Below, piece by piece: positions 1,234 through 30,418 of a DNA stretch of 64,000 nucleotides; the first letter of the stretch is position 1; each line of letters opens with the position of its first letter. A model generated the notes under the pieces. It did not search any database, had not been told where the DNA came from, and saw only the letters and a program-made list of their open reading frames with translations. The translations under genes and the position numbers were made by a program. This DNA is from Vulcanimicrobiota bacterium (GTDB lineage: Bacteria; Vulcanimicrobiota; Xenobia; Xenobiales; JADMJV01), in NCBI GenBank assembly GCA_050250895.1, contig JBFWNU010000005.1:9235-73234 (forward strand), written 5' to 3'.

Positions 1234-2496
1234 TTAATCGAAGGGGTTCAACCAGCTGAGCACGCGACGGCCGCCATCCACCACCGCATTGCCGACGTCG
1301 GCGGCCGTGTTGATCACGGCTCGGCCGGTGTCGGCCACGAAATCCACGGTGGCGCGGGCCGCGTTGTCGACCCAACCGGCGGTGCGCTCGACCCAGTTGT
1401 CGTCGCTGTCGCCGGGCTGATTGAAGTAGCGGACCGAGCCGTCTTTCATGGTGGCCACGATCACCACCTGGCCGTTCTCGAGCGTACGAACCTCGTGGCT
1501 GCGCACGTTCTCGAGATTGATGTCGCGGTTGCCGTTGCCGTTGCCGGTGGCCCAACTTGCGAAGCGTTCCAGCGGTCCATCGTCAGCGTCGCCGGCTCGA
1601 ACCGTGGTGGTGACATCGTCACCCGGTGTTTGACCCGGGTTGACCGAGTCGACCTGACCGTTCGCGCGGATGGTGACACGGGTGTTGATATCACCGTCGG
1701 TGTCTTCGACGATGGCCCGGGAGTTGGTGTTGTTATTGACCACGGTGGTGGTGGTCTGAGCGGTCAAGTCGTTGCTGGTGGCCCGGGTCTGAGAGATGGT
1801 CGCACCGGGGGTCTCCCCCGCGGTCGTTTCGATGAAGCCGCCATCGTTGACGCGGGTCGTCACGGTCATGCGAGCGTCGCGGACCTCGTTCATCGTGCGG
1901 ACTTCGGCCTGGTTAGGAGTAACGTGGATCCGCTGTTGACCGACGTCCTGACGACCGGCAATCAGCCGACCCGGGTGATCGCTGTCGAGGTGCTGGCGAT
2001 TGCAGACCTGAGGTTGGCGATACATGTTTTGCATGGCCATCATCTGCATCATCTGTTGTTGCTGTTGCATCATATACATCTGCATGTACATGTTCATCAT
2101 GGCCGCATTGCGCTGCTGGCTCATCTGTAACAGTCCCATGTAGGGGGCCATCTCGGGACCAAAGCCGTAGCCGTAGGCCGACGGCCCGAACCCGAACGAG
2201 CCTGGCATCCCAAACGAGCCGGGGTAGTTGCCGCAGCCGCCGCCCATCTGGTTGGCCATGTTGCCACCCATCCAGGCGCCCTGGTAAGGGTTATGACAAG
2301 AGCAGCCGCAGTTGAGGGCCTGACCCGAGAAGCCGTTGGGTTGGTAGGGCGTGGGGGCACCCAGCGCCTGGTTGAGTCCGCCGAAAAGTTGATTGGAAAA
2401 GAGTCCGAGCAGGCCGCCGATGATGGCGCCCGGGCCAGGGCACATCAATCCACCGATGAGCGCGCCCGCCAGGCCGCCCATGAAGTTGAGTTGCAT
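1234..2496 (-). CDS. Hypothetical protein: N-terminal glycine-zipper (GGLAGALIGGL), Met/Gln-rich low-complexity region, C-terminal Thr/Asn/Asp-rich domain
   Basis: 420-aa ORF with strong GC3 bias on the minus strand. AGGAGA RBS 7 nt upstream of ATG. Terminator hairpin downstream. The opposite ORF 1156..2130 has antisense-like V/H/G/A composition. Confidence 0.6.
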   Translation of the reverse strand: MQLNFMGGLAGALIGGLMCPGPGAIIGGLLGLFSNQLFGGLNQALGAPTPYQPNGFSGQALNCGCSCHNPYQGAWMGGNMANQMGGGCGNYPGSFGMPGSFGFGPSAYGYGFGPEMAPYMGLLQMSQQRNAAMMNMYMQMYMMQQQQQMMQMMAMQNMYRQPQVCNRQHLDSDHPGRLIAGRQDVGQQRIHVTPNQAEVRTMNEVRDARMTVTTRVNDGGFIETTAGETPGATISQTRATSNDLTAQTTTTVVNNNTNSRAIVEDTDGDINTRVTIRANGQVDSVNPGQTPGDDVTTTVRAGDADDGPLERFASWATGNGNGNRDINLENVRSHEVRTLENGQVVIVATMKDGSVRYFNQPGDSDDNWVERTAGWVDNAARATVDFVADTGRAVINTAADVGNAVVDGGRRVLSWLNPFD

Positions 2497-2667
2497 TTGG
2501 TATCTCCTGCGATGAGAAGTTGCGACCGGCGTTCTCTTTTAGGCGTGGATCGCTCGACTCGCATGATGAGTATCACGCAAGACAAGACGGCCGTTAAGGC
2601 TTTAACAAAAGTTTTACAAACAGGGTGCTGGATTGAGGTCGGAAGTCAGCCATTGGCCAGCAGGGAG

Positions 2668-3147
2668 CTAGCGAACCCTGGACCCCAGAAAGGAGTTGAA
2701 GAACCAATTCAGGACGGCGAAGGCCTCTCCCATCGAGCCGCCGCTCCTCTGGTGACCCTCACGCACCTGGTCGGTGACGAGCTCGTCTCCGGATAGGCCC
2801 CGGTTCTTGTAAATCTGGGTCACCTTGCGTAGCTCGCCGTGGTCGAACCAGATGCCGCGACAGGCCCGGCAAACGTCCAGCGCGATGCCGCCCACCAGTG
2901 GCCGTTCCATGCCCTGGCGGCAACGAGGGCATCGACGCGCCGCCGCCGAGATTTCATAGGTGTGGGTGGCCGACCCACCACCGGCCGGATTGAGGCGCTT
3001 CATCAGGTCAGGACTCTTGTAGAACGTGGCCAATTCGCCCGCGTCAAACCAGATACCGAGACAGTTCGGACAGGTATCGACTTCGAGACCGGTGCTTCCG
3101 TCCTTAAGCAGTTCCAACCCTTGCTTGCTGCAGACCGGACAAACCAT
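2668..3147 (-). CDS. Double zinc-ribbon protein (two CxxC...CxxC-G-IWFDxGEL repeats, zf-TFIIB/PF13453-like)
   Basis: Two copies of CP(V/R)C...CPNCLGIWFDAGEL / CPRCRQ...CRACRGIWFDHGEL in the translation. Confidence 0.6.
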   Translation of the reverse strand: MVCPVCSKQGLELLKDGSTGLEVDTCPNCLGIWFDAGELATFYKSPDLMKRLNPAGGGSATHTYEISAAARRCPRCRQGMERPLVGGIALDVCRACRGIWFDHGELRKVTQIYKNRGLSGDELVTDQVREGHQRSGGSMGEAFAVLNWFFNSFLGSRVR

Positions 3148-3189
3148 GGTCTGGCTATATACGCGAGTCGGCGCCGGGTGGCCTTCTGC

Positions 3190-3223
3190 TCAAAAGGAGA
3201 GCGGCGCCGTTGGCGCCGCTCTC
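3190..3223 (-). terminator. Rho-independent terminator downstream of the lipoprotein gene
   Basis: 12-bp perfect stem GAGAGCGGCGCC/GGCGCCGCTCTC with a 3-nt loop, then CTTTTG on the minus strand, 6 nt after the stop at 3229. Confidence 0.55.
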
Positions 3224-3228
3224 TTCTA

Positions 3229-3618
3229 CTAGTGGGATTCGTCCGAGTTCTCAGCCGGGGCGGCGTCCGTCATCGGCGTCTCTCCCTCGGCCGGGGCGCC
3301 ATCCACGGTGGCCTCGCCTTCGGCCGGCGCACCATCCATGGTGGCCGGCGCCTCCGCCGGTGCCCCATCCATGGTGGTGGGAGCTTCGCCGGCAGGCGCT
3401 CCGTCCATACTGGTCGGAGTCTCTTCCCCGGTGGCCGGGGCCGTGTCGGTGGCTGGGGCTGTGTCGGTGGCCGGGGCGGTTTGGCCTGGCGGCGGGACCT
3501 CCGCAGGCTGAGTCGCAGCCGGAGGAGGGGTAGGGGTCCCCTCGTTGACTTGACCTTGATTGCAGCCCGCGACCAGAGTGGCCAGCAGAAGGGCTCCAAC
3601 TAGAAAGATACGGTTCAT
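3229..3618 (-). CDS. Acidic Pro/Ala/Thr-rich lipoprotein with tandem peptide repeats
   Basis: Start placed at the internal Met (MNRIFLVGALLLATLVAGC, with lipobox LVAGC) preceded by GGGAGAGG RBS. Repeats TDTAPA x3 and MDGAPAE x4 are encoded by 18- and 36-nt DNA tandem repeats. The longer ORF begins at 3657. Confidence 0.55.
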   Translation of the reverse strand: MNRIFLVGALLLATLVAGCNQGQVNEGTPTPPPAATQPAEVPPPGQTAPATDTAPATDTAPATGEETPTSMDGAPAGEAPTTMDGAPAEAPATMDGAPAEGEATVDGAPAEGETPMTDAAPAENSDESH

Positions 3619-3803
3619 AAAATCCTCTCCCATGATGTGATGAGGGGTTAGCCTCATCTAGAATGTAGACGAACCGGGTCAAGCTTCCCTCAAGATGCCT
3701 GCCCGGCCGCGTCAATTTTGTGTCAAGGTTCTCTTGATAGTTCCTTGCTGTCAGGTGCGAGCGATTTGACCTCGACTTGACCCGCCCCTGTTAGAGTAAA
3801 GGC

Positions 3804-5054
3804 GTGTATCAGCTAGTCAGCGGCCTGGGCGTCGCCGCCCTGTTAGCCATCGCCTATGTCTTTTCGGAAAATAGGAAAGCTGTGTCCTGGCGGTTGGTGG
3901 CCGTGGGAACCGGATTGCAGTTTCTATTGGCTGGGCTGGTGCTAAAGACCAGCCCGGGACGTTGGGTCTTTGCCTGGTTTAATGACCTGATCGGTGCAAT
4001 TCTCGGCTATGGAGAGGCGGGAACGCGCTTCGTCTTCAGCGAGAAACTCACCGACCCTGGCGCGTTTGGCGACATGGTCTTCGCTTTCAAGGTATTGCCC
4101 ACCATCATTTTCTTTTCGGCCATGATGAGCGTGCTGTACTACCTGGGGGTGATGCAATGGGTGGTCGCCGGTCTTTCGCGGCTGATGATGAGGGCGCTGG
4201 GCACCTCCGGAGCCGAGACCCTCTCCTGCGCTGCCAACATCTTTGTCGGTCAGACCGAAGCGCCCCTCCTTATCCGTCCCTATGTCGAGCGCATGACACG
4301 TTCCGAGTTGATGACGGTGATGACCGGCGGGTTCGCGACCGTGGCCGGGGGGGTCATGGCCGCCTATGTGGCCATGCTTAGCGACCGCTTTCCCAGCATC
4401 GCCGGTCATCTCATGGCGGCCTCCGTCATGTCGGCTCCGGCGGCGCTCGTGATGGCCAAGATCCTGATCCCCGAAACCGAAGAGCCAGCCACCCGAGGAG
4501 AGATCGCCATCGACGTGCCGGTCAAGGATGCTAACGTCATCGAGGCGGCCGCCGCTGGAGCCAGCGATGGTGTATCGTTGGCCCTCAACGTGGCTGGAAT
4601 GCTGGTGGCTTTCATCGGACTGGTGGCGCTGGCCGATGGCGGTCTGCACCACCTGGGGCTGCTTCTGGGCTACGAGAACTGGAACTTGAGTGCCGTCTTC
4701 AGCCTGGTCTTTTATCCCTTCGCTCTGTTGTTGGGCGTCCCGCCGGCCGAGGCCGGGACGGTGGCCAGACTGCTAGGCCAGAAGGTCGTCCTCAACGAGT
4801 TCTACGCGTACTCCCAACTGAGCTTGCTCCTCCACGGCTCAACCCAGGTCTTGTCCGAACGCTCGGTCACCCTGGTGACCTATGCCCTGTGCGGTTTCTC
4901 GAATTACTCGTCGATCGGTATCCAGATTGCCGGCATCGGCGGTATCGCGCCGGGACGGCGCTCGGATCTGGCCCGTCTCGGGTTGGCGGCTATGTTGGCC
5001 GGAAACCTGGCTTGTCTACAAACGGCCTGTGTGACCGGGGTTTTGGTGAGGTGA
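3804..5054 (+). CDS. nupC: NupC/CNT family concentrative nucleoside transporter
   Basis: 416-aa polytopic membrane protein with CNT-family hallmarks (GxxFVFG..L, MTGGFATVAGGVMAAY). GTG start. TTGACC...TAGAGT promoter-like sequence ending 6 nt before the start. Confidence 0.85.
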   Translation: MYQLVSGLGVAALLAIAYVFSENRKAVSWRLVAVGTGLQFLLAGLVLKTSPGRWVFAWFNDLIGAILGYGEAGTRFVFSEKLTDPGAFGDMVFAFKVLPTIIFFSAMMSVLYYLGVMQWVVAGLSRLMMRALGTSGAETLSCAANIFVGQTEAPLLIRPYVERMTRSELMTVMTGGFATVAGGVMAAYVAMLSDRFPSIAGHLMAASVMSAPAALVMAKILIPETEEPATRGEIAIDVPVKDANVIEAAAAGASDGVSLALNVAGMLVAFIGLVALADGGLHHLGLLLGYENWNLSAVFSLVFYPFALLLGVPPAEAGTVARLLGQKVVLNEFYAYSQLSLLLHGSTQVLSERSVTLVTYALCGFSNYSSIGIQIAGIGGIAPGRRSDLARLGLAAMLAGNLACLQTACVTGVLVR

Positions 5055-6183
5055 CCCTGAGTCTTCCAGGAGTCCCCCTGCCCTCGCGCCGAACCCTGGG
5101 TCCGGTGTTCGAACACGAAGCCTTCCCGGTCTGGCGTCCGGTCCAGTTGCTTTTCTCGGTTCTACTGGTGGCAATGGTCACGGTCGGAGCGCTGGCCCTG
5201 GGAGTCGTCACTCAGGCCAACCTGGTGATGTTCTATCTGCTGGTGGTTGTCTTTGCTGCCTCGCGCTGGGGCAAGGGCCCGGCCGCCCTGGCGGCCCTGA
5301 CGTCGGTTTTGGCCTTTGACTTCTTCTTCGTCCCGCCTTACCAGTTGTTGACCTTTTCTGTGCGGGACACCGAGCACTTCGTGACGTTCGTCTGTTTCAT
5401 GGTGGTCGGCTTGCTGGTGGCCGATTGGACCTCACGCATCCGTGGTCTGGCCCGCGACCGGCTGAGCTTGCTCGAAGAGGCCAGGGCGGTCGAGTTGCTC
5501 CGTGAAAAGGAGCGCCTCCAGGACGCCCTGCTCAATTCGATCTCTCACGACCTGCAAACACCGATCTCGTCTATCGTAGGAGCCCTGGACGGACTGTGTG
5601 ATACCAGCATCAACCTCGACCAGGAGTCTCGCCAGAGCCTGCTCGAGACGGCCCGCAGCGAAACCCATCGCCTGCACCGCCTGGTGCGGAATCTACTCGA
5701 TCTCACTCGGCTCGAGAGCGGTCCGCGTTTGAAGTTGGAAGAGTGTGACCTGACCGACCTGGTGGGAACGGCCCTGAGCCAATTGGAGGACGCCCTGGGA
5801 GCGCGCCAGGTGCGCCTGGATTTTGAGCCGGAGGCCCCGGTGCTCGAAGTGGATTTCGTGCTCTTCGTTCAGGTGCTGGTCAATCTGATCGACAATGCCG
5901 TAAAATATTCTCCGGCTGAATCGGCTATCGAACTGCGCTATCGAGTTGACCCTCAGGGAGTTCGGTTGGAAGTGCTGGACCGAGGCAGTGGGATCGCTGA
6001 GGCGGACCGCGAGCGGGTTTTCGAGAAGTTCTTCCGGCGTTCGGATACCAATACCTCAGGTTCGGGGCTGGGACTTGCCATCAGCCGAGGTCTGGTCGAA
6101 GCTCACGGCGGGCGGCTGACGGCCACCGCCCGGCCCGACGGCGGAGCGAGCCTGTTGATCTGGCTGCCAACGGAGCGAAGCTT

Positions 6184-6187
<4 letters not shown>
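5051..6187 (+). CDS. Sensor histidine kinase, KdpD C-terminal-like (DUF4118 membrane domain + HisKA + HATPase_c), lacking the KdpD N-terminal sensor/Usp domains
   Basis: Residues LLNSISHDLQTPISSI (H-box) and the G-box SGSGLGLAIS are present. Start placed at GTG 5051, overlapping the nupC stop as GTGA. The ORF-track start 4889 overlaps nupC in another frame. Confidence 0.75.
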
Positions 6188-6870
<683 letters not shown>

Positions 6871-7054
6871 TGGGTTCGCTAGCGAACGGACGCTCGCCAG
6901 GGCTTTGACTGGCAAAGTGCCGTCACCACTTGATTCTGTCCCCTTGACTCGTGTTCGCCGAGACTGAACTAGCAACATCCCGGACACAACCTGGATACTT
7001 CCCGGGTAGGCTGACGGCAAACTGTGACCTTCATCCTGGAGTTGGAGGTGCACT

Positions 7055-8428
7055 ATGCAAGCATTATTGAATAAACTAGGTTATTCTCACTTTCGACCCG
7101 GCCAGCGCGAAGCTCTGGCTGCTCTTTACGAAGGGCTCGACGTGTTGGCGGTCATGCCGACGGGAGCGGGCAAGTCCCTGATCTATCAACTTGGCTCCCA
7201 GGCCGTCGAAGGCCTCACCCTGGTGGTCTCGCCCCTGATCTCCTTGATGCAGGATCAGGTGGCGCGTCTGGAAGGGCGTGGATTTGCCGCCACCTATCTC
7301 GCCTCGAGCCTGGGCGCCGACGAGCATCACCAGCGACTGGAGGCGGTCCAAAGAGGACACATCCGTCTGCTGTTCGTGGCTCCAGAAAGGCTGCAGTCGA
7401 TCCCCTTCCGGCGCACACTGGCCAATCACCAGGTAGGCCTGCTAGCGATCGACGAGGCCCATTGCATCTCGCAGTGGGGCCACGACTTTCGCCCCGACTA
7501 TCGGCGCCTGGCCCAGCTCCGCCGCGAGCTGGGCTGCCCCTTGACGGTGGCCATGACGGCCACGGCCACTCCGGATGTTCAGGGCGACATCCTGCGCTGT
7601 CTCGAGATCGAGCAGGCCGTTCGAGTGGTGACCGGCTTTGACCGTCCCAACCTGGCCCTGAAGGTTCTGACCACCCCGGGTGGCGCCTACAAGGACGAGG
7701 TTCTCGCCGGGCTGGTCGCGGCCCATCTGAATCAGGTCATTCTGGTTTACGTCGGGACCCGCGCCGAATCCGAGCGGCTGAGCCTGGAACTGTCCGGCCT
7801 GCGGCCGACGATCTGCTATCACGGTGGCCTGCCCACCAAGGTCCGGACCGAGGCCTTGCAGCGGTTTTCGACCGAGGCCAACCCCCTGGTGGTGGCCACC
7901 AACGCTTTCGGCATGGGCATCGACCGGCCCGACGTGCGCCTGGTGATCCATCATCAGATGCCAGGCACGCTAGAGGCCTACTATCAAGAGGTGGGCCGGG
8001 CCGGACGAGACGGTAAACTGGCCGAGGGCGTCTTGCTGTTCGACCGCGAAGACCGCAAGTTGCACGAGTGGTTCATCAACCGGGCCTTTCCAACCCTCGA
8101 GAAGCTCCACGAGACCCACCTCAAACTGAGTCAGGGTGTCTCGTTTCGGCGCCTCAATCAGGTGGCCGTGGCCCAACTGGAGAAGGCCGGCCTGGTGACC
8201 AGGGTGGGACCAGGTCGATTCGTGACCCAACCCTGGACGCCGCGGCCTCTGGCTCGCCAGCTCGACGCCTCGGCAAACTACCGTCACCATCGCCATCGAC
8301 AACTCGAGAAGATGATCGCATACGCCGACGCCACGGTTTGCAGGCGCGGCCTGATCGTCAATCATTTCGGACAGAACCGGTTCACCGCCAGCAAACCGTG
8401 CTGCGACAACTGTCGGTCGTCGGGGTGA
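7055..8428 (+). CDS. recQ: RecQ-family ATP-dependent DNA helicase (short form, no HRDC)
   Basis: PTGAGKSLIYQL Walker A, DEAHCISQWGHDFRPDY, RQC zinc-binding Cys cluster. GGAGGTG RBS. Confidence 0.85.
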   Translation: MQALLNKLGYSHFRPGQREALAALYEGLDVLAVMPTGAGKSLIYQLGSQAVEGLTLVVSPLISLMQDQVARLEGRGFAATYLASSLGADEHHQRLEAVQRGHIRLLFVAPERLQSIPFRRTLANHQVGLLAIDEAHCISQWGHDFRPDYRRLAQLRRELGCPLTVAMTATATPDVQGDILRCLEIEQAVRVVTGFDRPNLALKVLTTPGGAYKDEVLAGLVAAHLNQVILVYVGTRAESERLSLELSGLRPTICYHGGLPTKVRTEALQRFSTEANPLVVATNAFGMGIDRPDVRLVIHHQMPGTLEAYYQEVGRAGRDGKLAEGVLLFDREDRKLHEWFINRAFPTLEKLHETHLKLSQGVSFRRLNQVAVAQLEKAGLVTRVGPGRFVTQPWTPRPLARQLDASANYRHHRHRQLEKMIAYADATVCRRGLIVNHFGQNRFTASKPCCDNCRSSG

Positions 8429-20552: not shown

Positions 20553-22877
20553 ATGGATCGGCCGATTCGCGTGCTGGTGCTCGAAGACGACCTGGCCTTT
20601 CGCGATGTGCTAGAAGAGCTTCTGCAGGACCGGGGCTATGAGGTGGTGGCAGCCGGCCGCGGTGAAGAGGCGGTCCAGCTGGCTCGCAACGAGCCGTTCG
20701 ACCTCATTGTGGCCGACATTCGCATGGAGGGCATGAGCGGCCTGGATGCCATCGAACAGGCGCGCGAGCTGCATCCCGAGCTGGGTGCCATCGTCATTTC
20801 AGGCTATGCCAGTGAGGAAGAGACCTTGCGGGCCGTGCGTTTGAAGGTGGGCGGCTATCTCAAGAAGCCCTTCAAGATGCAGGATTTGCTCGATCGCATC
20901 AACGAGTTCGTCACCCGCCGGGCGCTCGAGTTGCGCCAGGCAAGCGAACTCGAGCGGGCCCGGCGAGCTCTGACATGGAGCCTCGAAGGATTGGGCCACC
21001 TGGGCGAGCAGTTGCATACCGGGCGGGTCTTGCGAGCCGCCGAGTTGGCCGAGGGAATGGGCCGCCAACTGGGTCTGGGGGGCGACCTGCCGCAGCAGTT
21101 GCGTTGGGCCGCCATCCTGCATCAGCTCGACCAGCTGATGGCTTTGAAGATGCCCGAGCGGGTGGTGGACGGCCTGCATATGCTGCCGGGCTTGCGGGCT
21201 TCCTTGCAGAAGAGAGAGGACGCAGCCGCCTTTGCGGCCCAGCTGTGCCGGCGTCTCGAGCCGCACGAAGGGTTGCCTGAGGCCGAGGCTCTCGAACTCG
21301 AACCACCGCTCAAAGAGGCATATCACCGGTTGGTGACCGAGGGGGAAGCGGGTCCGGTCGAGCATCAGGCCCGGGCCGGTTTGGTGCGATTGGGCAGGGC
21401 CTTAGAGCAGGCAGGCGATTTTGCCGGCGCGAGCCTGGCCTATCAGGAAGCGGCCGACGGGGCCGGAGGCGAAGCGATTCAGGCCTTGCTGGGTCTGGCT
21501 CGGTTGGCGGTGGCCCAGGGTCAACGTGAAGGACTCGAGGAATCGATCAAAGGGGTGCTGGCCAGAGCCGAGCAACTGGGTCCGGTGGCCCAGGCTACGG
21601 CTGAACTCGAAGCCACCGACATTCTCACCCGGGCCGGCCACCCGGTGGCCAACAAACTGCTGGCTCGAGCCATCGAGAGCCTGGGAGCGGTCAAGCTGCA
21701 CGTGCCTCGCGCCAGCGCCGTCCTGCGATTGGCCAACCGGGCCGAGTTGGCGGCGGAGGCAGTCGAGCAGGCTCTGGCCGTGCTGGCCGACCCCAACTTC
21801 TTGCTCGAGGTGTTCGAGCAGCTTCCGGTCCTGCTGCCCGAGTTGCTGGAATACGCCGCCCGCACCGGTCACCCGACGGCCGGCAAGTTGGCCGCCCGCT
21901 TCGTACGCGACTATCCGCAAGAGGTGACCCGAGCCTTGCGGGTGGGGCGACTGACGGTGGTCGCGCGCGGCCTGGTGTTGACCAGCCTCGAGGGCCATCA
22001 AGACGCTCCCGGCGACCTGGTCGAGGGGCTGGGCCAGGACCCCGATCCTGAACTGCGGGCGCGGGCCCTTCGGCTGGCTAGTGGCTCGGCCGCACCGCCC
22101 ATCGTGCGCGTCTATTCGCTTGGGCCCATCGAGCTTTTTCTGGGGGAGCATCGGGTCGACGAGAAAGCGTGGAAGAGCCAGAAGATCAAGTATCTATTCT
22201 GGTTTCTGGCGGCTCAGAACCAGCCGGTAGTGGTCGACGCCATCATGGAAGAATTCTGGCCCGGGCCGGTCGAGAACGCTCGCCACAACCTCAACACCTC
22301 GGTCTCCTCGGTCCGTCGCTGCCTCAAGGGCGACTCGGACGGCAACCTCGATCCGGTCTTGCGCGAGAAGGACACCCTGGCGCTAAACCCCGAGCTACCC
22401 CTCTGGCACGATCTCGACGAGCTAGAGAAAGCCCACCAGCAAGCTCTTGCCTGTCTTCAGGCCGGCAAGTCCGAGCAGGCGATGGCCCACTTTTCGCGCG
22501 TGGCTCGCCTCTACAGGGGCCCTTATCTCGAAGGCTGCTACATGGATTGGGCGGTGGCCCGTCGTACCAGTGTAGAACATCTGGCTGCCGACGCCCTCGA
22601 GCGGCTGATCGCCAGCCGGCTCGAAGTGGGGCGCCATCGCGAAGCCCTGGAATACTCCATTCGTCTGCTCGAGGTGCGCCCCGACAATCAGGAGGCTCAC
22701 CACTTCAAGATGTTGGCTCACCTGGGTCTGGGTGAGCCTGAGCAAGCCATCAAGCAGTTCGAGGCTTGCCAGAAAATGCTGGCCAACCTCTACGACATGG
22801 AGCCCACCACCGAGCTTTTGCGAACCTACCATCGAGCGCGCTACGGCTTGAGCGACTCGCCCAGCTGGGTCGGCTGA
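20553..22877 (+). CDS. Response regulator: REC + large helical/TPR-like middle + C-terminal SARP-type winged helix and BTAD
   Basis: N-terminal IRVLVLEDD...DLIVADIRM receiver; C-terminal VRVYSLGPIELFL...KYLFWFLAA (OmpR/SARP wHTH) and TPR-like BTAD region. Start moved to the internal ATG to avoid overlap with the divergent gene. Confidence 0.7.
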   Translation: MDRPIRVLVLEDDLAFRDVLEELLQDRGYEVVAAGRGEEAVQLARNEPFDLIVADIRMEGMSGLDAIEQARELHPELGAIVISGYASEEETLRAVRLKVGGYLKKPFKMQDLLDRINEFVTRRALELRQASELERARRALTWSLEGLGHLGEQLHTGRVLRAAELAEGMGRQLGLGGDLPQQLRWAAILHQLDQLMALKMPERVVDGLHMLPGLRASLQKREDAAAFAAQLCRRLEPHEGLPEAEALELEPPLKEAYHRLVTEGEAGPVEHQARAGLVRLGRALEQAGDFAGASLAYQEAADGAGGEAIQALLGLARLAVAQGQREGLEESIKGVLARAEQLGPVAQATAELEATDILTRAGHPVANKLLARAIESLGAVKLHVPRASAVLRLANRAELAAEAVEQALAVLADPNFLLEVFEQLPVLLPELLEYAARTGHPTAGKLAARFVRDYPQEVTRALRVGRLTVVARGLVLTSLEGHQDAPGDLVEGLGQDPDPELRARALRLASGSAAPPIVRVYSLGPIELFLGEHRVDEKAWKSQKIKYLFWFLAAQNQPVVVDAIMEEFWPGPVENARHNLNTSVSSVRRCLKGDSDGNLDPVLREKDTLALNPELPLWHDLDELEKAHQQALACLQAGKSEQAMAHFSRVARLYRGPYLEGCYMDWAVARRTSVEHLAADALERLIASRLEVGRHREALEYSIRLLEVRPDNQEAHHFKMLAHLGLGEPEQAIKQFEACQKMLANLYDMEPTTELLRTYHRARYGLSDSPSWVG

Positions 22878-25273
22878 TGCAGGCGCGGCTGGTGGGGGTC
22901 GTCACCGGGCTTGCCCTGCTGGTTTTGGGTGGTCTGTCACCCCTTCCCACCGATTGGCTGGCCGTGGCTTTGCTGGGCTTGTCGGCAGTCTTTCTCGAGC
23001 GCCAGGCGGTAGGTCTGGGGGGTCAGGTCCGCTTCTCGCCAGCGACAGCCGTGTATCTGGGCGCGGCCCTTTTGTCCGGGGTCGGTTGCATGGCCGCGGC
23101 CGCACTGCTCTTGCTCGAGACCGCCAGCCGCGAACCGCGTCGGGTTCTCGAGGCGCTGGCCGCTCGTTTCGGCCTGATGACCGGCATTCTGGGCGCCTTT
23201 CTGGGACCGCTGAGCGGGCAACCCTGGCTTGCCTACCTGCTGGGCCCGGCCCTCTATCTGGGAGGCACCGTCTGGCACGAGCGCCAGGTGCGAGGCGAGT
23301 TGACCGCTCGCGAGCGGCTGAGCTGGTTTCGGGCCCGTCATCAGGTGCGCCCGCTGGAGCTGGGTCTGGCGGCAGCCGCCCCGGCTCTGGCTGCGCTCTA
23401 CGCCCAGTCTCCTCTGTTGGGGTTGGTGCTGGTGCCCGTGCTGGCCACCATGCAGTTGGCCGCCGAGAACCTGGTCATCAAAAGCCGGGCCGAGACTACC
23501 GAGCAGGTCATCGAGGCCCTGGCCGACGCCCGGGTCAGTCAGCAAGAAACGGCCCGAGAACTGGCCGAAACTCGCACCCAGAAACAGTTGCTGGAGGGGT
23601 TCTCCCAACAGCTGGCTCAGAATCCGGGGCTCGAGCAGGCCAGTCGTTCGTTGGTGGCCACCGTCTTCGAGTTGATGCCGGTCACCGACGTGGCCGTCTT
23701 TCTCAATCTTCCGGGTCAGCCAGCCGACCGCCCCGAGCCGTTTTACTACCAGGTGGGAGCCGAACATCAGGCTCGCCTGCAAGGCGCCCTGCTTACCGGT
23801 TTGCGCGAGCCTCTGGTGGACGAGGCTTGCCAATCCCGCGCCTGGGTGGTGGCCGAGACGCGCCACCGCACCACTCCTCGCCTGCTGGAAGGAAATCAGG
23901 CGGCAGTAGCCTTTGCCCTGGGCGACCTGGGGGCCCTCTATGTCGGGCGCACCGAGGTCCAGCCTTTTTCCCAGGATGAGTTGCGCCGTCTCGATTGGCT
24001 TTCGACGAAAGCTCGGCTGGCCTTGGAGGTGGCTTTTCGCGATTATGAGGTGAGCCGCCAGCAAGAGCTTCAGCGTCAGGCCGTCGCGGAACTCGAGCGC
24101 CGGGTGGTGCTGTTAGGCTCCCTCACCCACGGGGCCGAAGAGATGGCGGCCACCCTCGACCTCGAGGAGTTGGGTGAGCGGCTGGCCCAGCTTCTCGCCA
24201 GGGCCATCACCCACGATCACGGGCTGCTCGTCTTCGAGTGGGAACCAGGCCAGGTGGTCCGGCGCAGCTGGGGAGGTCTCGAACTCGAGCAACACGAGTT
24301 GCTGGAGAGCGCGCGCGAGTCGGGCCGGCCGCTGCTGCTTGACGATCTCGCCAAGACGCGCTTCGAGGTGCCCTCGACTCGCAGTTTGCTGGTGAGCCCA
24401 CTGGTGGCTCACAGCCGAACCTGCGGGGCCATTTTGTTGGGCAGCCGACAGCCCAATGCCTTTGACCGAGAACAGGTGGACATGCTGTTCTTGCTCGGCT
24501 GCCAGGCCGGCATGGCCTTCTCCAACGCCCGTCTCTATCACGAGGTGGTGTTGGCCCGCCGCCAGTTGGAAGAGTCTCAAGCCCAGCTCATTCAGTCCAG
24601 CAAGATGACGGCGGTGGGACAACTGGCCGCCGGCGTAGCCCACGAACTCAACACTCCCCTCGGGGCGATTGCCCTGGCTCTCGAAGCGGCCGCTTCGAGG
24701 GTGCAAGAACGTCCCGACTCGGCTCTGCGGATGATCGGCAAGGCTCAAGAGGGAGTCGAACGCTCGCGCACCATCATCGAGCGGCTACTGGTCTACTCGC
24801 GCAAACCCAGCCATGAACTGTTCCCCGTCGAGGTGGACAAGATGGTCAAAGATACCCTCGAGTTTGTCGGCTCTCAGGTCAAGACCATGGGCGCCGAAGT
24901 CGACTTTCAGCCGGGTTGCCCACACCAGGTGCGGGGTCGTTGGCAAGAGCTCCAGCAGGTGCTGGTCAACCTGCTCCTCAACGGGATCCAGGCGATGGAA
25001 GACAAGCCGCCGGGCGAGAAAAAAATAAAGGTCAGAACCTACGATGACGACCACCACATCGTCATCGAGGTATCTGACCAGGGTGTCGGGATGACTCCCG
25101 AACAGCTGGCTCGAGCCTTCGAGCCATTCTACACAACCAAGCCGGTTGGAAAGGGCACCGGTCTGGGGCTGTGGGTTGCCCACCAGATCGTGGGCGAGCA
25201 CGGTGGCACGCTCGAGGCGCAATCCCGACCCCACCACGGATCGGTCTTCACCGTTCGCTTGCCACAAGCCTGA
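22877..25273 (+). CDS. Membrane sensor histidine kinase with GAF domains
   Basis: Multi-TM N-terminus, two GAF-like regions, HisKA (AAGVAHELNTPL), HATPase_c (GTGLGLWV). TGATG overlap with the upstream regulator. Start at internal Met 38. Confidence 0.75.
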   Translation: MQARLVGVVTGLALLVLGGLSPLPTDWLAVALLGLSAVFLERQAVGLGGQVRFSPATAVYLGAALLSGVGCMAAAALLLLETASREPRRVLEALAARFGLMTGILGAFLGPLSGQPWLAYLLGPALYLGGTVWHERQVRGELTARERLSWFRARHQVRPLELGLAAAAPALAALYAQSPLLGLVLVPVLATMQLAAENLVIKSRAETTEQVIEALADARVSQQETARELAETRTQKQLLEGFSQQLAQNPGLEQASRSLVATVFELMPVTDVAVFLNLPGQPADRPEPFYYQVGAEHQARLQGALLTGLREPLVDEACQSRAWVVAETRHRTTPRLLEGNQAAVAFALGDLGALYVGRTEVQPFSQDELRRLDWLSTKARLALEVAFRDYEVSRQQELQRQAVAELERRVVLLGSLTHGAEEMAATLDLEELGERLAQLLARAITHDHGLLVFEWEPGQVVRRSWGGLELEQHELLESARESGRPLLLDDLAKTRFEVPSTRSLLVSPLVAHSRTCGAILLGSRQPNAFDREQVDMLFLLGCQAGMAFSNARLYHEVVLARRQLEESQAQLIQSSKMTAVGQLAAGVAHELNTPLGAIALALEAAASRVQERPDSALRMIGKAQEGVERSRTIIERLLVYSRKPSHELFPVEVDKMVKDTLEFVGSQVKTMGAEVDFQPGCPHQVRGRWQELQQVLVNLLLNGIQAMEDKPPGEKKIKVRTYDDDHHIVIEVSDQGVGMTPEQLARAFEPFYTTKPVGKGTGLGLWVAHQIVGEHGGTLEAQSRPHHGSVFTVRLPQA

Positions 25274-25280
25274 GATAGGA

Positions 25281-25793
25281 TTATTTCTTCTTGCCACCTC
25301 CCACCCCGAGGGCCTTGAAATCTTTCATCGACACGCCCGCTCCCGGGCCGGCGGCGTCCCGCAGGCGGCGGTAATAGGCAGGGTTGTCCAGCAGGAACTG
25401 ACTGGCCTTCTTGAGGCGACCGGGCACGTCCGGGTTGTCCTCGACGATGGCTTTCAGATCGCGTCGGTGAAACTTCTTGTCGCGTTTGCTCTGGCCGTCG
25501 GCGGTGTCGAGCACGCCGCGGTGGTGACTGAGCACCTTGACGGCCTCTTTGAAGTTCATCTTCTTGGGGGTGGGCGCAGCCGGGGTCGGCTGGGGCGGAT
25601 TGAGGAAGTCGTGCCAGGTCTGATTGAGTTGGCCCAGGCTCTCGAGCAGTTCCATCTGAAACTGCTGGCCGTACGGGTTCGGGTTGCTCGGTGCAGGCGG
25701 CTGATAGGTAGGAGCCTGCTGGTAGACGTTGACCTGATATTGTTGGACGGCCTGGTAGTTGAAAAAGCCGTAGTTGCTTCCGTAGGTATTCAT
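25281..25793 (-). CDS. Hypothetical protein with Q/N/Y-rich prion-like N-terminus and basic C-terminal domain
   Basis: 170-aa ORF beginning MNTYGSNYGFFNYQAVQQYQVNVYQQAPTYQPP. Confidence 0.5.
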   Translation of the reverse strand: MNTYGSNYGFFNYQAVQQYQVNVYQQAPTYQPPAPSNPNPYGQQFQMELLESLGQLNQTWHDFLNPPQPTPAAPTPKKMNFKEAVKVLSHHRGVLDTADGQSKRDKKFHRRDLKAIVEDNPDVPGRLKKASQFLLDNPAYYRRLRDAAGPGAGVSMKDFKALGVGGGKKK

Positions 25794-25828: not shown

Positions 25829-26275
25829 CTAGCCCAAGAGTCCGGCCCAGGCGGGGCCGCTGTTGCCGACCATCGAGCGAGCCTGATTGAAGCCCGCGCC
25901 GCTGAGCCCGTTGCCTTGCAGCAGATCGTTGAGGCCTGGCAACATTCCGCCCAGTATCTGCATCTGCACGTCGTTCTGGCCGTTCATTCCAGTGGCCATG
26001 CCGACGGCGAGGTCATAGTCTCTTTGGCGAGCATCACGAAGCTCGGTCATCATCTGGATCTGCTCTTCCTGAGCCTTCCTGGCCGCTTCGATCGCTTCGG
26101 GGTCGGCGTTGACGCCACCCCAGGCCTCGGCCAGGGTGGTCAACAAGTTCACCAGTTGGCCAACCGACTCGACCAGAGCACCGATGTCGTTGCCCGAGCC
26201 CGGGGCCGCGTTGGTAGCGGCTCTGGGGGCGGCAGCGGCGGTGCGAGTGGTGGGTTGGTTGGCCTGGACTTTCAT
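25829..26275 (-). CDS. Hypothetical protein (Ala/Gly/Gln-rich helical)
   Basis: GGAGAG RBS 6-7 nt upstream; operon partner of 25281..25793. Confidence 0.5.
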   Translation of the reverse strand: MKVQANQPTTRTAAAAPRAATNAAPGSGNDIGALVESVGQLVNLLTTLAEAWGGVNADPEAIEAARKAQEEQIQMMTELRDARQRDYDLAVGMATGMNGQNDVQMQILGGMLPGLNDLLQGNGLSGAGFNQARSMVGNSGPAWAGLLG

Positions 26276-26421
26276 CGTTCGCTCTCCTCGTGAGTTCTTG
26301 ATACAAGCTTACGAAGAGCGAATAAACCCCCACTAAACCACCTCAGAATCAGGTTAACAGGATGTAAATTTATCCTCTTGATGGGTTCGAACCGTGGGCT
26401 GTGACCCTTTCCTGACGGAAG

Positions 26422-27264
26422 ATGGAGGAACTGGAGTTGGATAGAAGAACGTCTTACAGGGTCATGCCCTTTCCGAGTTCGGAACGTGTCATATATGAAC
26501 GCAACCCTCTGAAAGAGGTCATTTGCGATCTCCAGTTTCCGGCGATTCTTGAGATTTCGAGTTCGAACCCAGTGGCGTTTCAGAAGGTGGTTCGGAAAGC
26601 TTATCCGCTCTTTTCTAAAGGCACCTCGGTCCATCAGGTCAACGCTCCGCCGGAGATTCCGCCCCATGTCATTCAACTCTTTCTCAGCCAGGTGGGAGAA
26701 GCTGGGCCGCCTACCTTCACGTTTAAGACAGCGGATGAAAACAGAGCTATTGTGATGTCCCAGAGCAACCTGGTTCTTCATGAGAAGGACTACAAGGAAT
26801 GGACTGAGTTCAAAGCAAATTTTTCCGACGTCGAAAAGACCTTCCGAAAGGTATACGAGCCGCCCTTCTATACTAGAATTGGCCTCCGCTACGTCAACGT
26901 CATCGACCGTGACGCTCTCGACCTAGGAGATTCCTCATGGAGCGAGATTCTAAAAACCAGGCTCTTGGGTCTTCTCGGAGGTATAAATGGAGTAGAGGTT
27001 ACCGAGACCAAAACGGAGGCACTGCTCAACTTGAATGTGACCAGCGTGAAGGGTGCTCAAGCTTATGTTCGCCACGGGCTTGTCCGGGAGCAAAGTAGCG
27101 GTCGCCCCCTCTATGTCTTGGATATAGATCTATTTACCGACGAAAGGAGTAAGCCGACAGATGTCCCCAAACGACTTGATGTTTTTTCCAGAGAAGCAGG
27201 CAACTTCTTCCGGCATGTTACGAGAGGCAAGCTTCACGAGGCTCTTGGACCGCGCTCCGGTTGA
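26422..27264 (+). CDS. Uncharacterised protein in low-GC island; N-terminal motif YERNPLKEVICDLQFP resembles the sporadically distributed TIGR04255 family (recollection, unverified)
   Basis: 280-aa ORF in a ~50% GC segment (flanks ~65%). Preceded by a 146-nt AT-richer intergenic region. Confidence 0.55.
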   Translation: MEELELDRRTSYRVMPFPSSERVIYERNPLKEVICDLQFPAILEISSSNPVAFQKVVRKAYPLFSKGTSVHQVNAPPEIPPHVIQLFLSQVGEAGPPTFTFKTADENRAIVMSQSNLVLHEKDYKEWTEFKANFSDVEKTFRKVYEPPFYTRIGLRYVNVIDRDALDLGDSSWSEILKTRLLGLLGGINGVEVTETKTEALLNLNVTSVKGAQAYVRHGLVREQSSGRPLYVLDIDLFTDERSKPTDVPKRLDVFSREAGNFFRHVTRGKLHEALGPRSG

Positions 27265-27616
27265 GAGGAGCGGACATGTCTTGCGGCGAGTCGACCTCTT
27301 GGCGAATCTGTTGATTCGACTCGCGAATGTGCCGCTGGAGCAGTTGATCAACGTTTGCTCCATCGTTGGGGAGCATACAGGCGAACCTCATTCCCCCAGT
27401 ATTTTGAGAGTAGTTCCGAGCGAGACCCTTCTGCCACGAACTCTCTCGGGCCAACCCTCGCGAGGTGCGTCTCGCCCTGAGCCACCTCTCGATGACTTTA
27501 CCCTGCCTGAGATTCACTCGAGGCCTGAGCAACTCGAGGCCGTACTGAATTTCATCGCCACTCAACCTTCGACGACCGTTTCATCTTTGTCCGACCTCTT
27601 CGAGGAAGAGGACTAG
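27161..27616 (+). CDS. Hypothetical acidic protein (C-terminus DLFEEED)
   Basis: AAAGGAG RBS 10 nt upstream of the ATG. Overlaps the upstream gene by ~100 nt in another frame. Same low-GC island. Confidence 0.4.
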   Translation: MSPNDLMFFPEKQATSSGMLREASFTRLLDRAPVERSGHVLRRVDLLANLLIRLANVPLEQLINVCSIVGEHTGEPHSPSILRVVPSETLLPRTLSGQPSRGASRPEPPLDDFTLPEIHSRPEQLEAVLNFIATQPSTTVSSLSDLFEEED

Positions 27617-27621
27617 TTGGG

Positions 27622-28290
27622 ATGTATAGCCGAGTCCTCGACGCTCAGCTAAGACAAGGCGACATTCTCGGCAATGTATACTATCCGAAGCTAGACTATT
27701 CGAAGGCCAAATTCCTAGGCTCACTTAATACCTTCCAGTCTCCCCTGGCGTTCGAACCCCAGAAGAACGGCAGCTCGCTCGTGGCTCAGCTTACTTTTTC
27801 TGAGGCTTTCTGTGTAGTCCTTAGTCAATGTTGCGACCTCGCGATCCGTGACGGGGAGCCGTGCAAGACAGATTTTATCGTATGCTGTGTTCTTCGAGAA
27901 TACAGCAGAGGGCACCAAGAGAAGGACCCTGCTCGCTTTAAGCAGGTGAGGCTGAATCCATTATCGGACTTCGGCTCTAGCTACTTTTTTGCGCGAAAGA
28001 AGCCGCTACTATCCCATTTCGTCGCTGAGCTGTCAAATACGTTCTCTGTGCCTAAGAAGTCGTATCCTGATTTGGCCGCGAGAAAGATCTTGCAGTTGAC
28101 GGACGCTGAGCGAGTGCATTTTAAGAAGAAGGTCGCTAGCTTCTTCGGAAGGGCGACCGATGAGGAGACGACTGCGAAGCTTTGGACCGAAGCTTCGGGC
28201 GCCAAGTGTGCAGCGGAAACGAAATCGGGTGTGCGCTGTTCACGCACGCCGATGCCAGGATTGCGCTTCTGCAGGCAACATCAGCCGTAA
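27622..28290 (+). CDS. Hypothetical Cys-rich protein (CC...CC cluster and C-terminal C/H zinc-ribbon-like tail)
   Basis: 222-aa ORF in the low-GC island; convergent with pilC. Confidence 0.5.
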   Translation: MYSRVLDAQLRQGDILGNVYYPKLDYSKAKFLGSLNTFQSPLAFEPQKNGSSLVAQLTFSEAFCVVLSQCCDLAIRDGEPCKTDFIVCCVLREYSRGHQEKDPARFKQVRLNPLSDFGSSYFFARKKPLLSHFVAELSNTFSVPKKSYPDLAARKILQLTDAERVHFKKKVASFFGRATDEETTAKLWTEASGAKCAAETKSGVRCSRTPMPGLRFCRQHQP

Positions 28291-28293
28291 TGT

Positions 28294-29373
28294 TTACGGC
28301 GCGAACTTGCCCACCAGAGTATACATGGGCAAGAAGACCGAGATGACGATAAAGCCCACCACCACGGCCACTCCACTCATCAGCAACGGCTCGAGCAGCG
28401 TCGACATCAGCTCGACTCGGTAGCTGACTTGCTCTTCATAGTGGCGGGCTAGAAACCCGAACATATCGGCAACGCGGGCCGATTCTTCGCCCGCGTTGGT
28501 GAGGTGCACGACCGTCCTGGGATAGATGTCGGGGCGAGTGGCGAAATGCTCCGAGAGGCTCTCTCCCTGTTCGACGGCCGAGCGCATGGGGCGCCAATCG
28601 TGGGCCACCAGGGGGCTGCCGCTGGCCTCGCTGGCCAGGCGCAGACCGGTGAGAAAATCGGTACCCGATTCGAGCATGGCCGCGGCTGCGGCCGTGAAGC
28701 GCGCCATGGCGGTGTCTCGCATCAACCCTCCCACCACCGGCACGAACAGGGCCAACCGATAGCACTCGCGGCGCACCTCTGGTGATTCGAAGTAGCCTCG
28801 CCCGAGCAACAAGACGGCCAGCAAGAAGAGACTCGCCACCGTCCAGGCCCCGGGGCTGGTGATGACGCTGGTGATCAAGACCAGCAGGCGGGTGGGCAGT
28901 GGCAGTTCGGCTCCCAGGTCGTCGAACATGTCGATGAAACTCGGCACCACGCTGACGAAGAGCAGCAGGGTGAGAAAGGCGGTCAGACTCAGGGCGAAAG
29001 CGGGATAGGTCAGGGCCGACTTGAGTTGGCGCCGGAGGTGATCGTCTTTTTCCATCCAGCCACACAGCTGGTCGAGTTGACGCACCAGTTGGCCGTTGGT
29101 CTCGCCCATGGCCACCATGCTCACGGCCAGTGAGGGGAACACCCTGGGAAAGCCGGCCATGGCGGAAGAGAGTCGATGGCCCGACGAGACCCTGGTTTGC
29201 AGCTCGGCCACCACCAGCACCAGGGTTTCGTCGCTGGCGAAGTCGACCACCACCTGGAGAGCGTCCATCAGCGAGATGCCCGAATTGAGCATCGTCGAGA
29301 GCTCGCGGTAGAAACCGATCACCACCTCGGGGCGGCAGCGGGCCCGCTTCTGCCAATAGGCCGGCTGCTCCAT
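28294..29373 (-). CDS. pilC: Type II secretion / type IV pilus platform protein GspF/PilC family, lacking the N-terminal cytoplasmic domain
   Basis: Two T2SSF-like domains (FYRELSTMLNSGISLMDAL ... ; ...FLPMYTLVG). 359 aa versus ~400 typical. Confidence 0.8.
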   Translation of the reverse strand: MEQPAYWQKRARCRPEVVIGFYRELSTMLNSGISLMDALQVVVDFASDETLVLVVAELQTRVSSGHRLSSAMAGFPRVFPSLAVSMVAMGETNGQLVRQLDQLCGWMEKDDHLRRQLKSALTYPAFALSLTAFLTLLLFVSVVPSFIDMFDDLGAELPLPTRLLVLITSVITSPGAWTVASLFLLAVLLLGRGYFESPEVRRECYRLALFVPVVGGLMRDTAMARFTAAAAAMLESGTDFLTGLRLASEASGSPLVAHDWRPMRSAVEQGESLSEHFATRPDIYPRTVVHLTNAGEESARVADMFGFLARHYEEQVSYRVELMSTLLEPLLMSGVAVVVGFIVISVFLPMYTLVGKFAP

Positions 29374-29873: not shown

Positions 29874-30418
29874 AATCTAGCTTCCGTCGAGAACTCTCGC
29901 AGCAGGTGCTTTTCCTGAAAGCTCACCTTCAGACCCACCCGGTCTTTAGCCAGAAAGGTCGTCTCGAGGCCGCGAATTCCCTCGGATACCTGGCTCTGGG
30001 CGGTCCAGCCCGGGCCACTCACCGTGCGCATCAGGCCCTGTCCCCCGACCTGATAAGTGACCGTCACCAACTGCCCCGCCGGCCGAGGGTCCCAGCTGGT
30101 GAATCCAGCCGGGCTGGGGGGCAGTCGAATCGCGGCCGGGTCCAGTCGCTCGAAACCGAGCACGTTGCTCGTACCCGCCGAGGGCGTGATCAGGCGGATG
30201 GCCGAGCCGAGTTCGGAACGCATCTGCTCGAGGCCGGTCTGCACTCCGTTGAGGGTCTGCTCTTTGCTGGCCGCCAGTCGGGTGGCCTCGGAGTATTCCC
30301 GCACCAGCACACCCACCATGCCCAGCACCATAAAGACCAGCACCATGGCCAGCATCGCCTCGGGCAACGAAAAGCCGCGTCTCACGGCGAAAGCTGCATC
30401 TCCACGGAATATCCCCAC
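29855..30418 (-). CDS. Prepilin-type N-terminal cleavage/methylation domain pseudopilin
   Basis: RRGFSLPEAMLAMVLVFMVL; the true start is probably an alternative codon just upstream of this motif. Confidence 0.6.
   Translation of the reverse strand: MGIFRGDAAFAVRRGFSLPEAMLAMVLVFMVLGMVGVLVREYSEATRLAASKEQTLNGVQTGLEQMRSELGSAIRLITPSAGTSNVLGFERLDPAAIRLPPSPAGFTSWDPRPAGQLVTVTYQVGGQGLMRTVSGPGWTAQSQVSEGIRGLETTFLAKDRVGLKVSFQEKHLLREFSTEARLWVFQP

Follow-up and report, generated by a model that had tools for sequence, protein, structure and literature searches.

What is a short, compositionally odd run of genes doing between a kinase operon and the pilus gene pilC, and how did it get there? The question is raised by a 64,000-nucleotide (nt) stretch of contig JBFWNU010000005.1 from a Vulcanimicrobiota bacterium (assembly GCA_050250895.1), called here, over its whole 64 kb, the window. 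An initial annotation made from the letters alone had described positions 26276–28293 as a foreign, low-GC cassette of three uncharacterised genes and proposed it as a defence module. We call these genes, all on the + strand, g1, g2 and g3. Analysis of the locus and its relatives confirms that 26369–28293 is horizontally acquired foreign DNA inserted between host genes, and points with about even probability to a mobile, self-contained tripartite module of the toxin–antitoxin (TA) or abortive-infection type, in which g3 would be the toxin, g2 its neutraliser and g1 a regulator or sensor. The three open reading frames (ORFs) are indeed present where described, encoding 280, 151 and 222 amino acids (aa), and the compositional dip is both real and unique in the window. 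GC content over roughly 26200–28400 is 0.50–0.57 against 0.60–0.69 on either side, the lowest-GC 2-kb interval of all 64 kb starts at 26251 (0.521; mean 0.631, standard deviation 0.023), and 26369–28293 is the sole low-GC patch (0.52 against 0.63). GC at third codon positions tells the same story, being 0.58, 0.61 and 0.61 in g1, g2 and g3, and 0.75–0.83 in the kinase, two small host genes and pilC.

The insertion itself is seen most directly by comparison with a sister strain from another sample, represented by contigs L033 and L034, whose PilC (P0203) is 95% identical and which matches the window at about 89% nucleotide identity in both flanks by blastn. L033 aligns at 1–1814 to window positions 30114–28301 and at 1832–8412 to 26368–19797. 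Blastn of the two contigs places the restart of homology on the right at 28301; at the level of single bases, host homology ends after ...CAGGATGTAAA (26368) and restarts at the pilC stop codon (28294). Where the window carries its 1925-nt insert, the sister strain has just 10 nt, CATCTGGATG, and there a gene of 147 aa comes 104 nt after pilC. The cassette splits this pair while lying antisense to both; in the window the stop codons of g3 and the convergent pilC are 3 nt apart. A synteny comparison with relatives had been proposed with the initial annotation, and this strain lacks exactly the inserted segment. Since that strain lacks it and the codon usage is foreign, the difference is best explained by gain rather than loss, and with its empty counterpart the locus is a clean natural example of a recent gain. 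The gene order over both junctions recurs in an independent Logan assembly (SRR27751815, contig in 2 samples), so the cassette is not chimeric. An identical g1 protein, named TIGR04255 family protein by NCBI, is annotated in a Vulcanimicrobiota metagenome-assembled genome. No TIGR04255 or g3 gene was found near pilC in more distant relatives (PilC 52–53% identical).

The 146-nt spacer ahead of g1 (26276–26421), which had been counted as part of the cassette, exists, though only its last 53 nt (26369–26421) are foreign. As to how the segment entered, we looked for flanking repeats, a tRNA, an integrase or a transposase and found only an imperfect direct repeat of about 11/15 at the junctions, read by eye from the alignments, which may be due to chance; the cassette itself encodes neither integrase nor transposase. 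Scans for tRNAs, tandem repeats (over 26000–28600), Rfam families, consensus promoters and terminators gave nothing that marks the segment, and the promoter and terminator scan nothing of use on the + strand.

What, then, do the three genes encode? A resemblance to the TIGR04255 family, initially noticed at the N-terminus of g1, extends over the full length of the protein (NCBIfam model, 126.2 bits against a cut-off of 30, E 1.8e-36, profile positions 2–252 of 252). Homologs begin at the equivalent of Met15, which makes ATG 26464 an alternative start. Pfam, PADLOC and PHROG models gave no match to g1 and a literature search found no mention of TIGR04255 under any identifier; the module proposed here would, if true, provide the first functional context for the family. 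The structure predicted from a 47-sequence alignment (pLDDT 88.4, pTM 0.85) contains two beta-alpha-beta(3-4)-alpha repeats, and the modelled fold is a pseudo-twofold β-saddle like that of TBP and the guanidino kinases. Among the 60 matches listed, the best structural ones are to guanidino kinases, AdoMetDC and TBP-like proteins, while a SecB-like chaperone, the type of third component found in TAC systems, is not among them; a viral structure library returned TBP-like domains at low TM scores. In the PDB the TIGR04255 profile also matched part of Sp100, the bromodomain region (E 7e-4, 55 residues), a match discarded as spurious, the folds being different. Invariant residues alternate along the strands of the model (R152-G154-R156 and D234-D236; others are N28, P29, C35 and Q36), from which we infer that one face of the saddle holds a ligand site or active site that is conserved.

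The company that TIGR04255 genes keep elsewhere argues for a conserved unit. Scanning one genome per species gave 189 relatives, and counts out of 80 given here refer to the best 80 of them, which come from at least ten phyla. With an iterated g3 profile, 64 of these 80 loci prove to have a gene of the g3 superfamily, always 144–513 nt past the TIGR04255 stop. The remaining 16 have unrelated third genes of at least three further classes: a cyanobacterial one, one common to Burkholderia phages and a Rhizobium plasmid, and a small third class; Pfam domains were not found in these alternative downstream genes. Because the third gene is either g3-type or of at least three other classes, TIGR04255 looks like a constant head with swappable tails. 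Approached from the other end, 15 loci with g3 homologs (the window, L002 and 13 of 22 metagenome loci) have a same-strand TIGR04255-type ORF 389–524 nt upstream; in two of them the contig breaks off inside TIGR04255, and in L026 the gap is shorter when the longest ORF is taken. The middle gene and g3 also occur alone, for instance on a 67.9-kb viral contig, and TIGR04255 is absent upstream in L010/L030, L027, L031 and L032 despite at least 2 kb of upstream sequence. In two metagenome contigs (L003:1-777; L004:3-608) the genes ahead of the closest g3 homolog (35% identity) encode a 77-aa middle protein and an unrelated 258-aa protein matching neither TIGR04255 nor Pfam, which may be another alternative head component.

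Head and middle gene are joined in an unusual way. The overlap of about 100 nt between g1 and g2, with a separate ribosome-binding site for g2, had been noted from this one sequence, and proves to be a family trait: an ATG in the +1 frame lies 98–119 nt before the stop of 70 of the 80 TIGR04255 genes, across at least ten phyla. A Shine-Dalgarno (SD) core stands 4–17 nt upstream of that ATG in 54 of the 70, compared with 13% at random control positions in the same genes, and the ORF opened there reaches 100 aa or more in 68 of the 70 (median 144 aa). In the window, AAAGGAG precedes ATG 27161 by 12 nt; a public gene caller placed the start of g2 at ATG 27215 (133 aa), and on plasmid pCB3060_2 PGAP annotates the same 104-nt overlap. 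The internal ATG arises from GAT|G, AAT|G, CAT|G or TAT|G and the SD from ACG GAG, AGG AGT, AAG GAG and others, so to judge by the sequences it is nucleotides rather than residues that are conserved at the internal start. If true, this would be a rare, deeply conserved case of genes in a small operon being coupled through a long out-of-frame overlap. A second geometry, ATGA (a 4-nt overlap), is present at the stop of 23 of the 80 genes and serves as start for a metagenomic middle-gene subfamily, 'FYEDII...KLRRSTKPGLRVSAE' (L011-L024); couplings of 4 nt and of about 105 nt thus coexist in the family.

The g2 protein is acidic (net charge -8) and ends in ...LSDLFEEED. Its body gave no significant similarity to other middle proteins with three profiles and phmmer, and an hhalign alignment to them covers only the 38 residues encoded within g1, which is not independent evidence. 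What g2 shares with the middle proteins is acidity (family median net charge -5.5) and the character of its tail, which resembles their hydrophobic-acidic C-termini, such as ...RPAYSLVEEE; at least two of the last six residues are acidic in 40 of 68 middle proteins, against 18% in the background. Position and acidic C-terminal tail fit a type II TA antitoxin, and searches of 53 middle proteins against Pfam and the PDB found no known domain.

The third gene provides the concrete basis for the toxin or abortive-infection idea, since g3 has the SH3-like barrel fold of MazF and CcdB. A word-indexed search found four homologs of g3; with an exhaustive profile search there are 413 cluster representatives, 48 of them at E<=1e-30 and most about 200 aa long. 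Among 56 aligned members, L10, R11, Q12, G13, D14, C71, R164 and R177 are invariant or nearly so, and the broader superfamily conserves Q12, G13, C71, D72, L73, N112, D-F at 136-137 (E-L in the window copy), R170 and R177. The protein is twice the size of MazF, Kid or CcdB and has additional helices, a long insertion at residues 25-54, and a Cys-Asp pair and an Arg that are invariant; we take C71, D72 and R177 to be unlike the known catalytic residues of MazF and Kid. A link to MazF at the level of sequence was rejected: a profile search of PDB sequences returned no MazF, Kid or CcdB chain, Pfam PemK_toxin and CcdB profiles do not match g3 at E<=1, and hhalign against MazF, EndoA and Kid gave a non-significant probability of 0.4%. 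Because this profile-profile comparison was not significant, we speak of a MazF/CcdB-fold protein and not of a family member. A designed double-psi barrel, weakly matched by the g3 profile (E 0.21), was also set aside. Pfam, NCBIfam, PADLOC, PHROGs and PDB sequences gave no relevant match to g3 and 64 superfamily members. If the assignment is true, a large family of 413 cluster representatives, invisible to Pfam, NCBIfam and PADLOC, joins the MazF/CcdB fold, and current TA and defence censuses miss it.

The initial annotation had described g3 as Cys-rich with a zinc-ribbon-like tail. The protein has nine Cys, and the C-X9-C-X10-C-X2-H motif of its C-terminal tail occurs nowhere else among the six-frame ORFs of the window; models of Cys/His domains match this tail below their cut-offs (HGGxSTG, E 0.005, 16.6 bits, cut-off 29; GvpO-N, E 0.0009, 18.8 bits, cut-off 52), with alignments that cover just the Cys/His knuckle and do not place g3 in either family. 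The tail is absent from the other 55 of the 56 aligned members and, being unique to the window copy among them, does not belong to the core of the system.

Table 1. Positions of the insert, its genes and its flanks in the window.
Feature	Position	Strand	Remarks
Inserted foreign segment	26369..28293		1925 nt; blastn against L033/L034, low GC and GC at third codon positions
Left junction, CAGGATGTAAA / TTTA	26358..26372	+	From sister-strain alignments; imperfect direct repeat with right junction
Right junction, CAGCCGTAATGT / TTA	28282..28296	+	Covers g3 stop (28288-28290) and pilC stop (28294-28296, -)
Leader upstream of g1, part of insert	26369..26421	+	Consensus promoter not found
g1, TIGR04255 family protein, 280 aa	26422..27264	+	Predicted duplicated beta-alpha-beta(3-4)-alpha saddle
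SD of g2, AAAGGAG	27142..27148	+	Sits in g1 codons E-R-S
g2, middle gene, 151 aa, putative neutraliser/antitoxin	27161..27616	+	First 104 nt overlap g1, +1 frame
g3, 222 aa, MazF/Kid/CcdB-like fold, putative toxin/effector	27622..28290	+	Family unannotated
C-terminal C-X9-C-X10-C-X2-H tail of g3, residues 196-220	28207..28281	+	Lineage-specific; possibly zinc-binding; low model confidence
Left-flank host gene, 148 aa	25829..26275	-	104 nt from pilC in sister strain
Right-flank host pilC/T2SS-F gene	28294..29373	-	Convergent with g3

What surrounds such cassettes elsewhere? The initial annotation had taken adjacency to pilus genes as telling, an idea that does not survive comparison: 125 nearest neighbours of 64 cassettes fall in 123 Pfam families, with only two integrases, so the cassette is autonomous, bound neither to defence islands nor to pili, and pilC as a neighbour carries no information. 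Defence-island context as a general property was likewise rejected, the neighbours being heterogeneous. The accompanying view of a sporadic, tightly packed and uncharacterised cassette is upheld, the proposed Pfam and PADLOC searches with g1, g2 and g3 yielding no matches in either and PHROGs none; in PADLOC-DB v2.0.0 neither these nor 64 g3-superfamily members match a system component. Mobile elements carry the relatives repeatedly. One g3-type cassette lies on a viral contig, others stand beside prophage lysis or tail genes, an integrase or a type ISP restriction enzyme, two TIGR04255 cassettes are on conjugative plasmids, and seven Burkholderia pseudomallei temperate phages have one between the integrase and a toxin/antidote pair by the portal gene. 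In phage vB_FKKS3 (L119:6116-6789), an annotated toxin/addiction-module antidote pair lies between cassette and portal gene, so that two TA-like modules adjoin in its accessory region. On the Rhizobium plasmid pCB3060_2 (L120:171-2468, 5824-6741) the cassette is flanked by an IS110 transposase and a multiubiquitin/ThiF/DUF6527 operon, a ubiquitin-like conjugation system, and in L001:385-7083 a g3-family gene adjoins a 517-aa Cas1 and a large PolB-like gene in a casposon-like arrangement. With relatives on phages and plasmids of culturable hosts (Burkholderia phages, Rhizobium, Thioalkalivibrio, Nostoc), the functional hypothesis can be tested directly.

How might such a module work? As effector, g3 would most likely bind and cleave RNA, or otherwise poison a target that handles nucleic acids, through the conserved polar cluster of Q12-G13, C71-D72, D-F at 136-137 and R177. 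The MazE C-terminal tail neutralises MazF by occupying its substrate groove; by analogy, g2, as a fast-evolving and labile acidic neutraliser, could place its hydrophobic-acidic C-terminal tail in the corresponding groove of g3. With the ribosome-binding site and ATG of g2 set about 35 codons deep within g1, in the +1 frame, synthesis of g2 would be tied to that of g1, and g1, the conserved third partner with a putative ligand-binding β-saddle, may be a coupled regulator or sensor with control over g2 or over g3 release. The pay-off could be addiction, phage exclusion or both. A wider view, which we consider possible but doubtful, sees TIGR04255 cassettes in general as widespread, undescribed conflict systems in which the saddle head, perhaps using ATP, drives interchangeable effectors. 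TIGR04255, with its guanidino-kinase/GS-fold likeness, would then sense a signal or chemically modify its partners, would be hard-wired to a small acidic neutraliser by the conserved overlap of about 35 codons in the +1 frame, and would most commonly act through a new, Cys-dependent branch of the MazF/CcdB fold hidden from sequence methods.

The logic of a mobile TA-like cassette with a MazF-fold effector is already known; for the families themselves, the three-part architecture headed by a TBP/guanidino-kinase-like protein, a MazF fold with an invariant Cys and the conserved overlap of about 35 codons, we found no description in the libraries and literature searched. The cassette differs from MazEF, Kid-Kis and CcdAB in that g3 has no relationship to their toxins at the sequence level, the protein encoded upstream of g3 has no domain of the AbrB, ribbon-helix-helix (RHH) or Phd type, and a third, larger conserved gene, TIGR04255, stands at its head and shares about 105 nt with the middle gene. 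Its layout is shared by the tripartite TA systems omega-epsilon-zeta, PaaR2-PaaA2-ParE2, HipBST and TAC/CmdTAC, some of which act in phage defence (PMC9098466, PMC11618068, PMC7167474): there too three genes run in one direction, the small neutraliser is the middle gene or an adjacent one, the toxin comes last and a third partner modulates the pair. However, none of g1, g2 and g3 is homologous to their components, and g1 is neither an RHH or helix-turn-helix repressor nor a SecB-like chaperone, having instead the predicted TBP/guanidino-kinase-like saddle. One conserved component with several unrelated partners recalls Panacea/DUF4065 and the NetFlax network (PMC8832971, PMC10440598), TIGR04255 being the counterpart that pairs with the MazF-fold class and at least three others; here, in contrast, it is parted from the putative toxin by the middle gene that it overlaps. 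Type III systems such as ToxN, AbiQ and CptN use a tandem-repeat RNA antitoxin, whereas this cassette has a protein-coding middle gene and the region 26000–28600 contains no tandem repeats and no Rfam match. Temperate-phage accessory regions are known reservoirs of antiviral systems (PMC9122126), and the Burkholderia cassettes, between integrase and portal and by a TA pair, resemble such moron or hotspot cargo; they have a different third gene, however, and the cassette of the window is not within a prophage.

Other explanations have to be set against the tripartite module. An assembly chimera, or a decaying remnant without function, is a hardly credible account of the segment: the source is a metagenome-assembled genome and the insertion shows neither integrase nor clear target duplication, but the Logan assembly repeats the order over both junctions, and the three ORFs are intact and keep the family-specific internal SD and ATG. 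More reasonable, though still quite unlikely, is an ordinary two-gene TA pair, g2 being the antitoxin and g3 the toxin, with TIGR04255 an unrelated travelling passenger. The loci where middle gene and g3 stand without TIGR04255 over at least 2 kb upstream (the viral contig L010/L030, L027, L031 and L032), together with the unrelated 258-aa gene in that place in L003 and L004, are what one would expect of a passenger. Against this, a g3-type gene occupies the same slot at 64 of 80 TIGR04255 loci, the start and ribosome-binding site of the middle gene lie inside TIGR04255 and are conserved across phyla, which amounts to physical and translational coupling, and TIGR04255 heads at least three other classes of third gene, so that it acts as a system component.

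The assignment of roles within a three-part module could also be the reverse of ours, TIGR04255 being the active enzyme or effector, with an ATP-using fold like that of guanidino kinases and GS, or a modifier of the MazF-fold or middle protein in the manner of type VII TA systems, and g3 an adaptor, sensor or target-binding subunit instead of a nuclease; we regard this as unlikely. A function outside genetic conflict, for example a small regulatory or metabolic module in which the MazF-like barrel is an SH3-like binding domain, seems very unlikely. It would account for defence libraries without matches and for neighbours that are mostly housekeeping genes; it sits poorly with the absence of the cassette from the sister strain, its foreign composition and sporadic spread across phyla, with the copies on phages, on plasmids and beside a casposon-like element, and with the absence of conserved metabolic neighbours.

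Some observations concern the host genes around the insert. The two small proteins to its left (170 aa, 25281-25793, and 148 aa, 25829-26275, both on the - strand) are conserved by pilC in the sister strain and have no precomputed Pfam matches on record; lying between pilC and these genes and antisense to the operon, the cassette may affect their co-transcription. In the distant relatives (L035:8001-13946; L037:8001-13846; PilC 52–53%), pilC is inverted relative to the pseudopilin genes, which is not so in the window or the sister strain. The longest ORF of the GAF-HisKA-HATPase kinase (22766-25273, +) encodes 835 aa and overlaps a response-regulator/BTAD gene by 112 nt; its homologs and the public gene call have 798–801 aa, and translation probably begins about 37 codons downstream of the start of the longest ORF.

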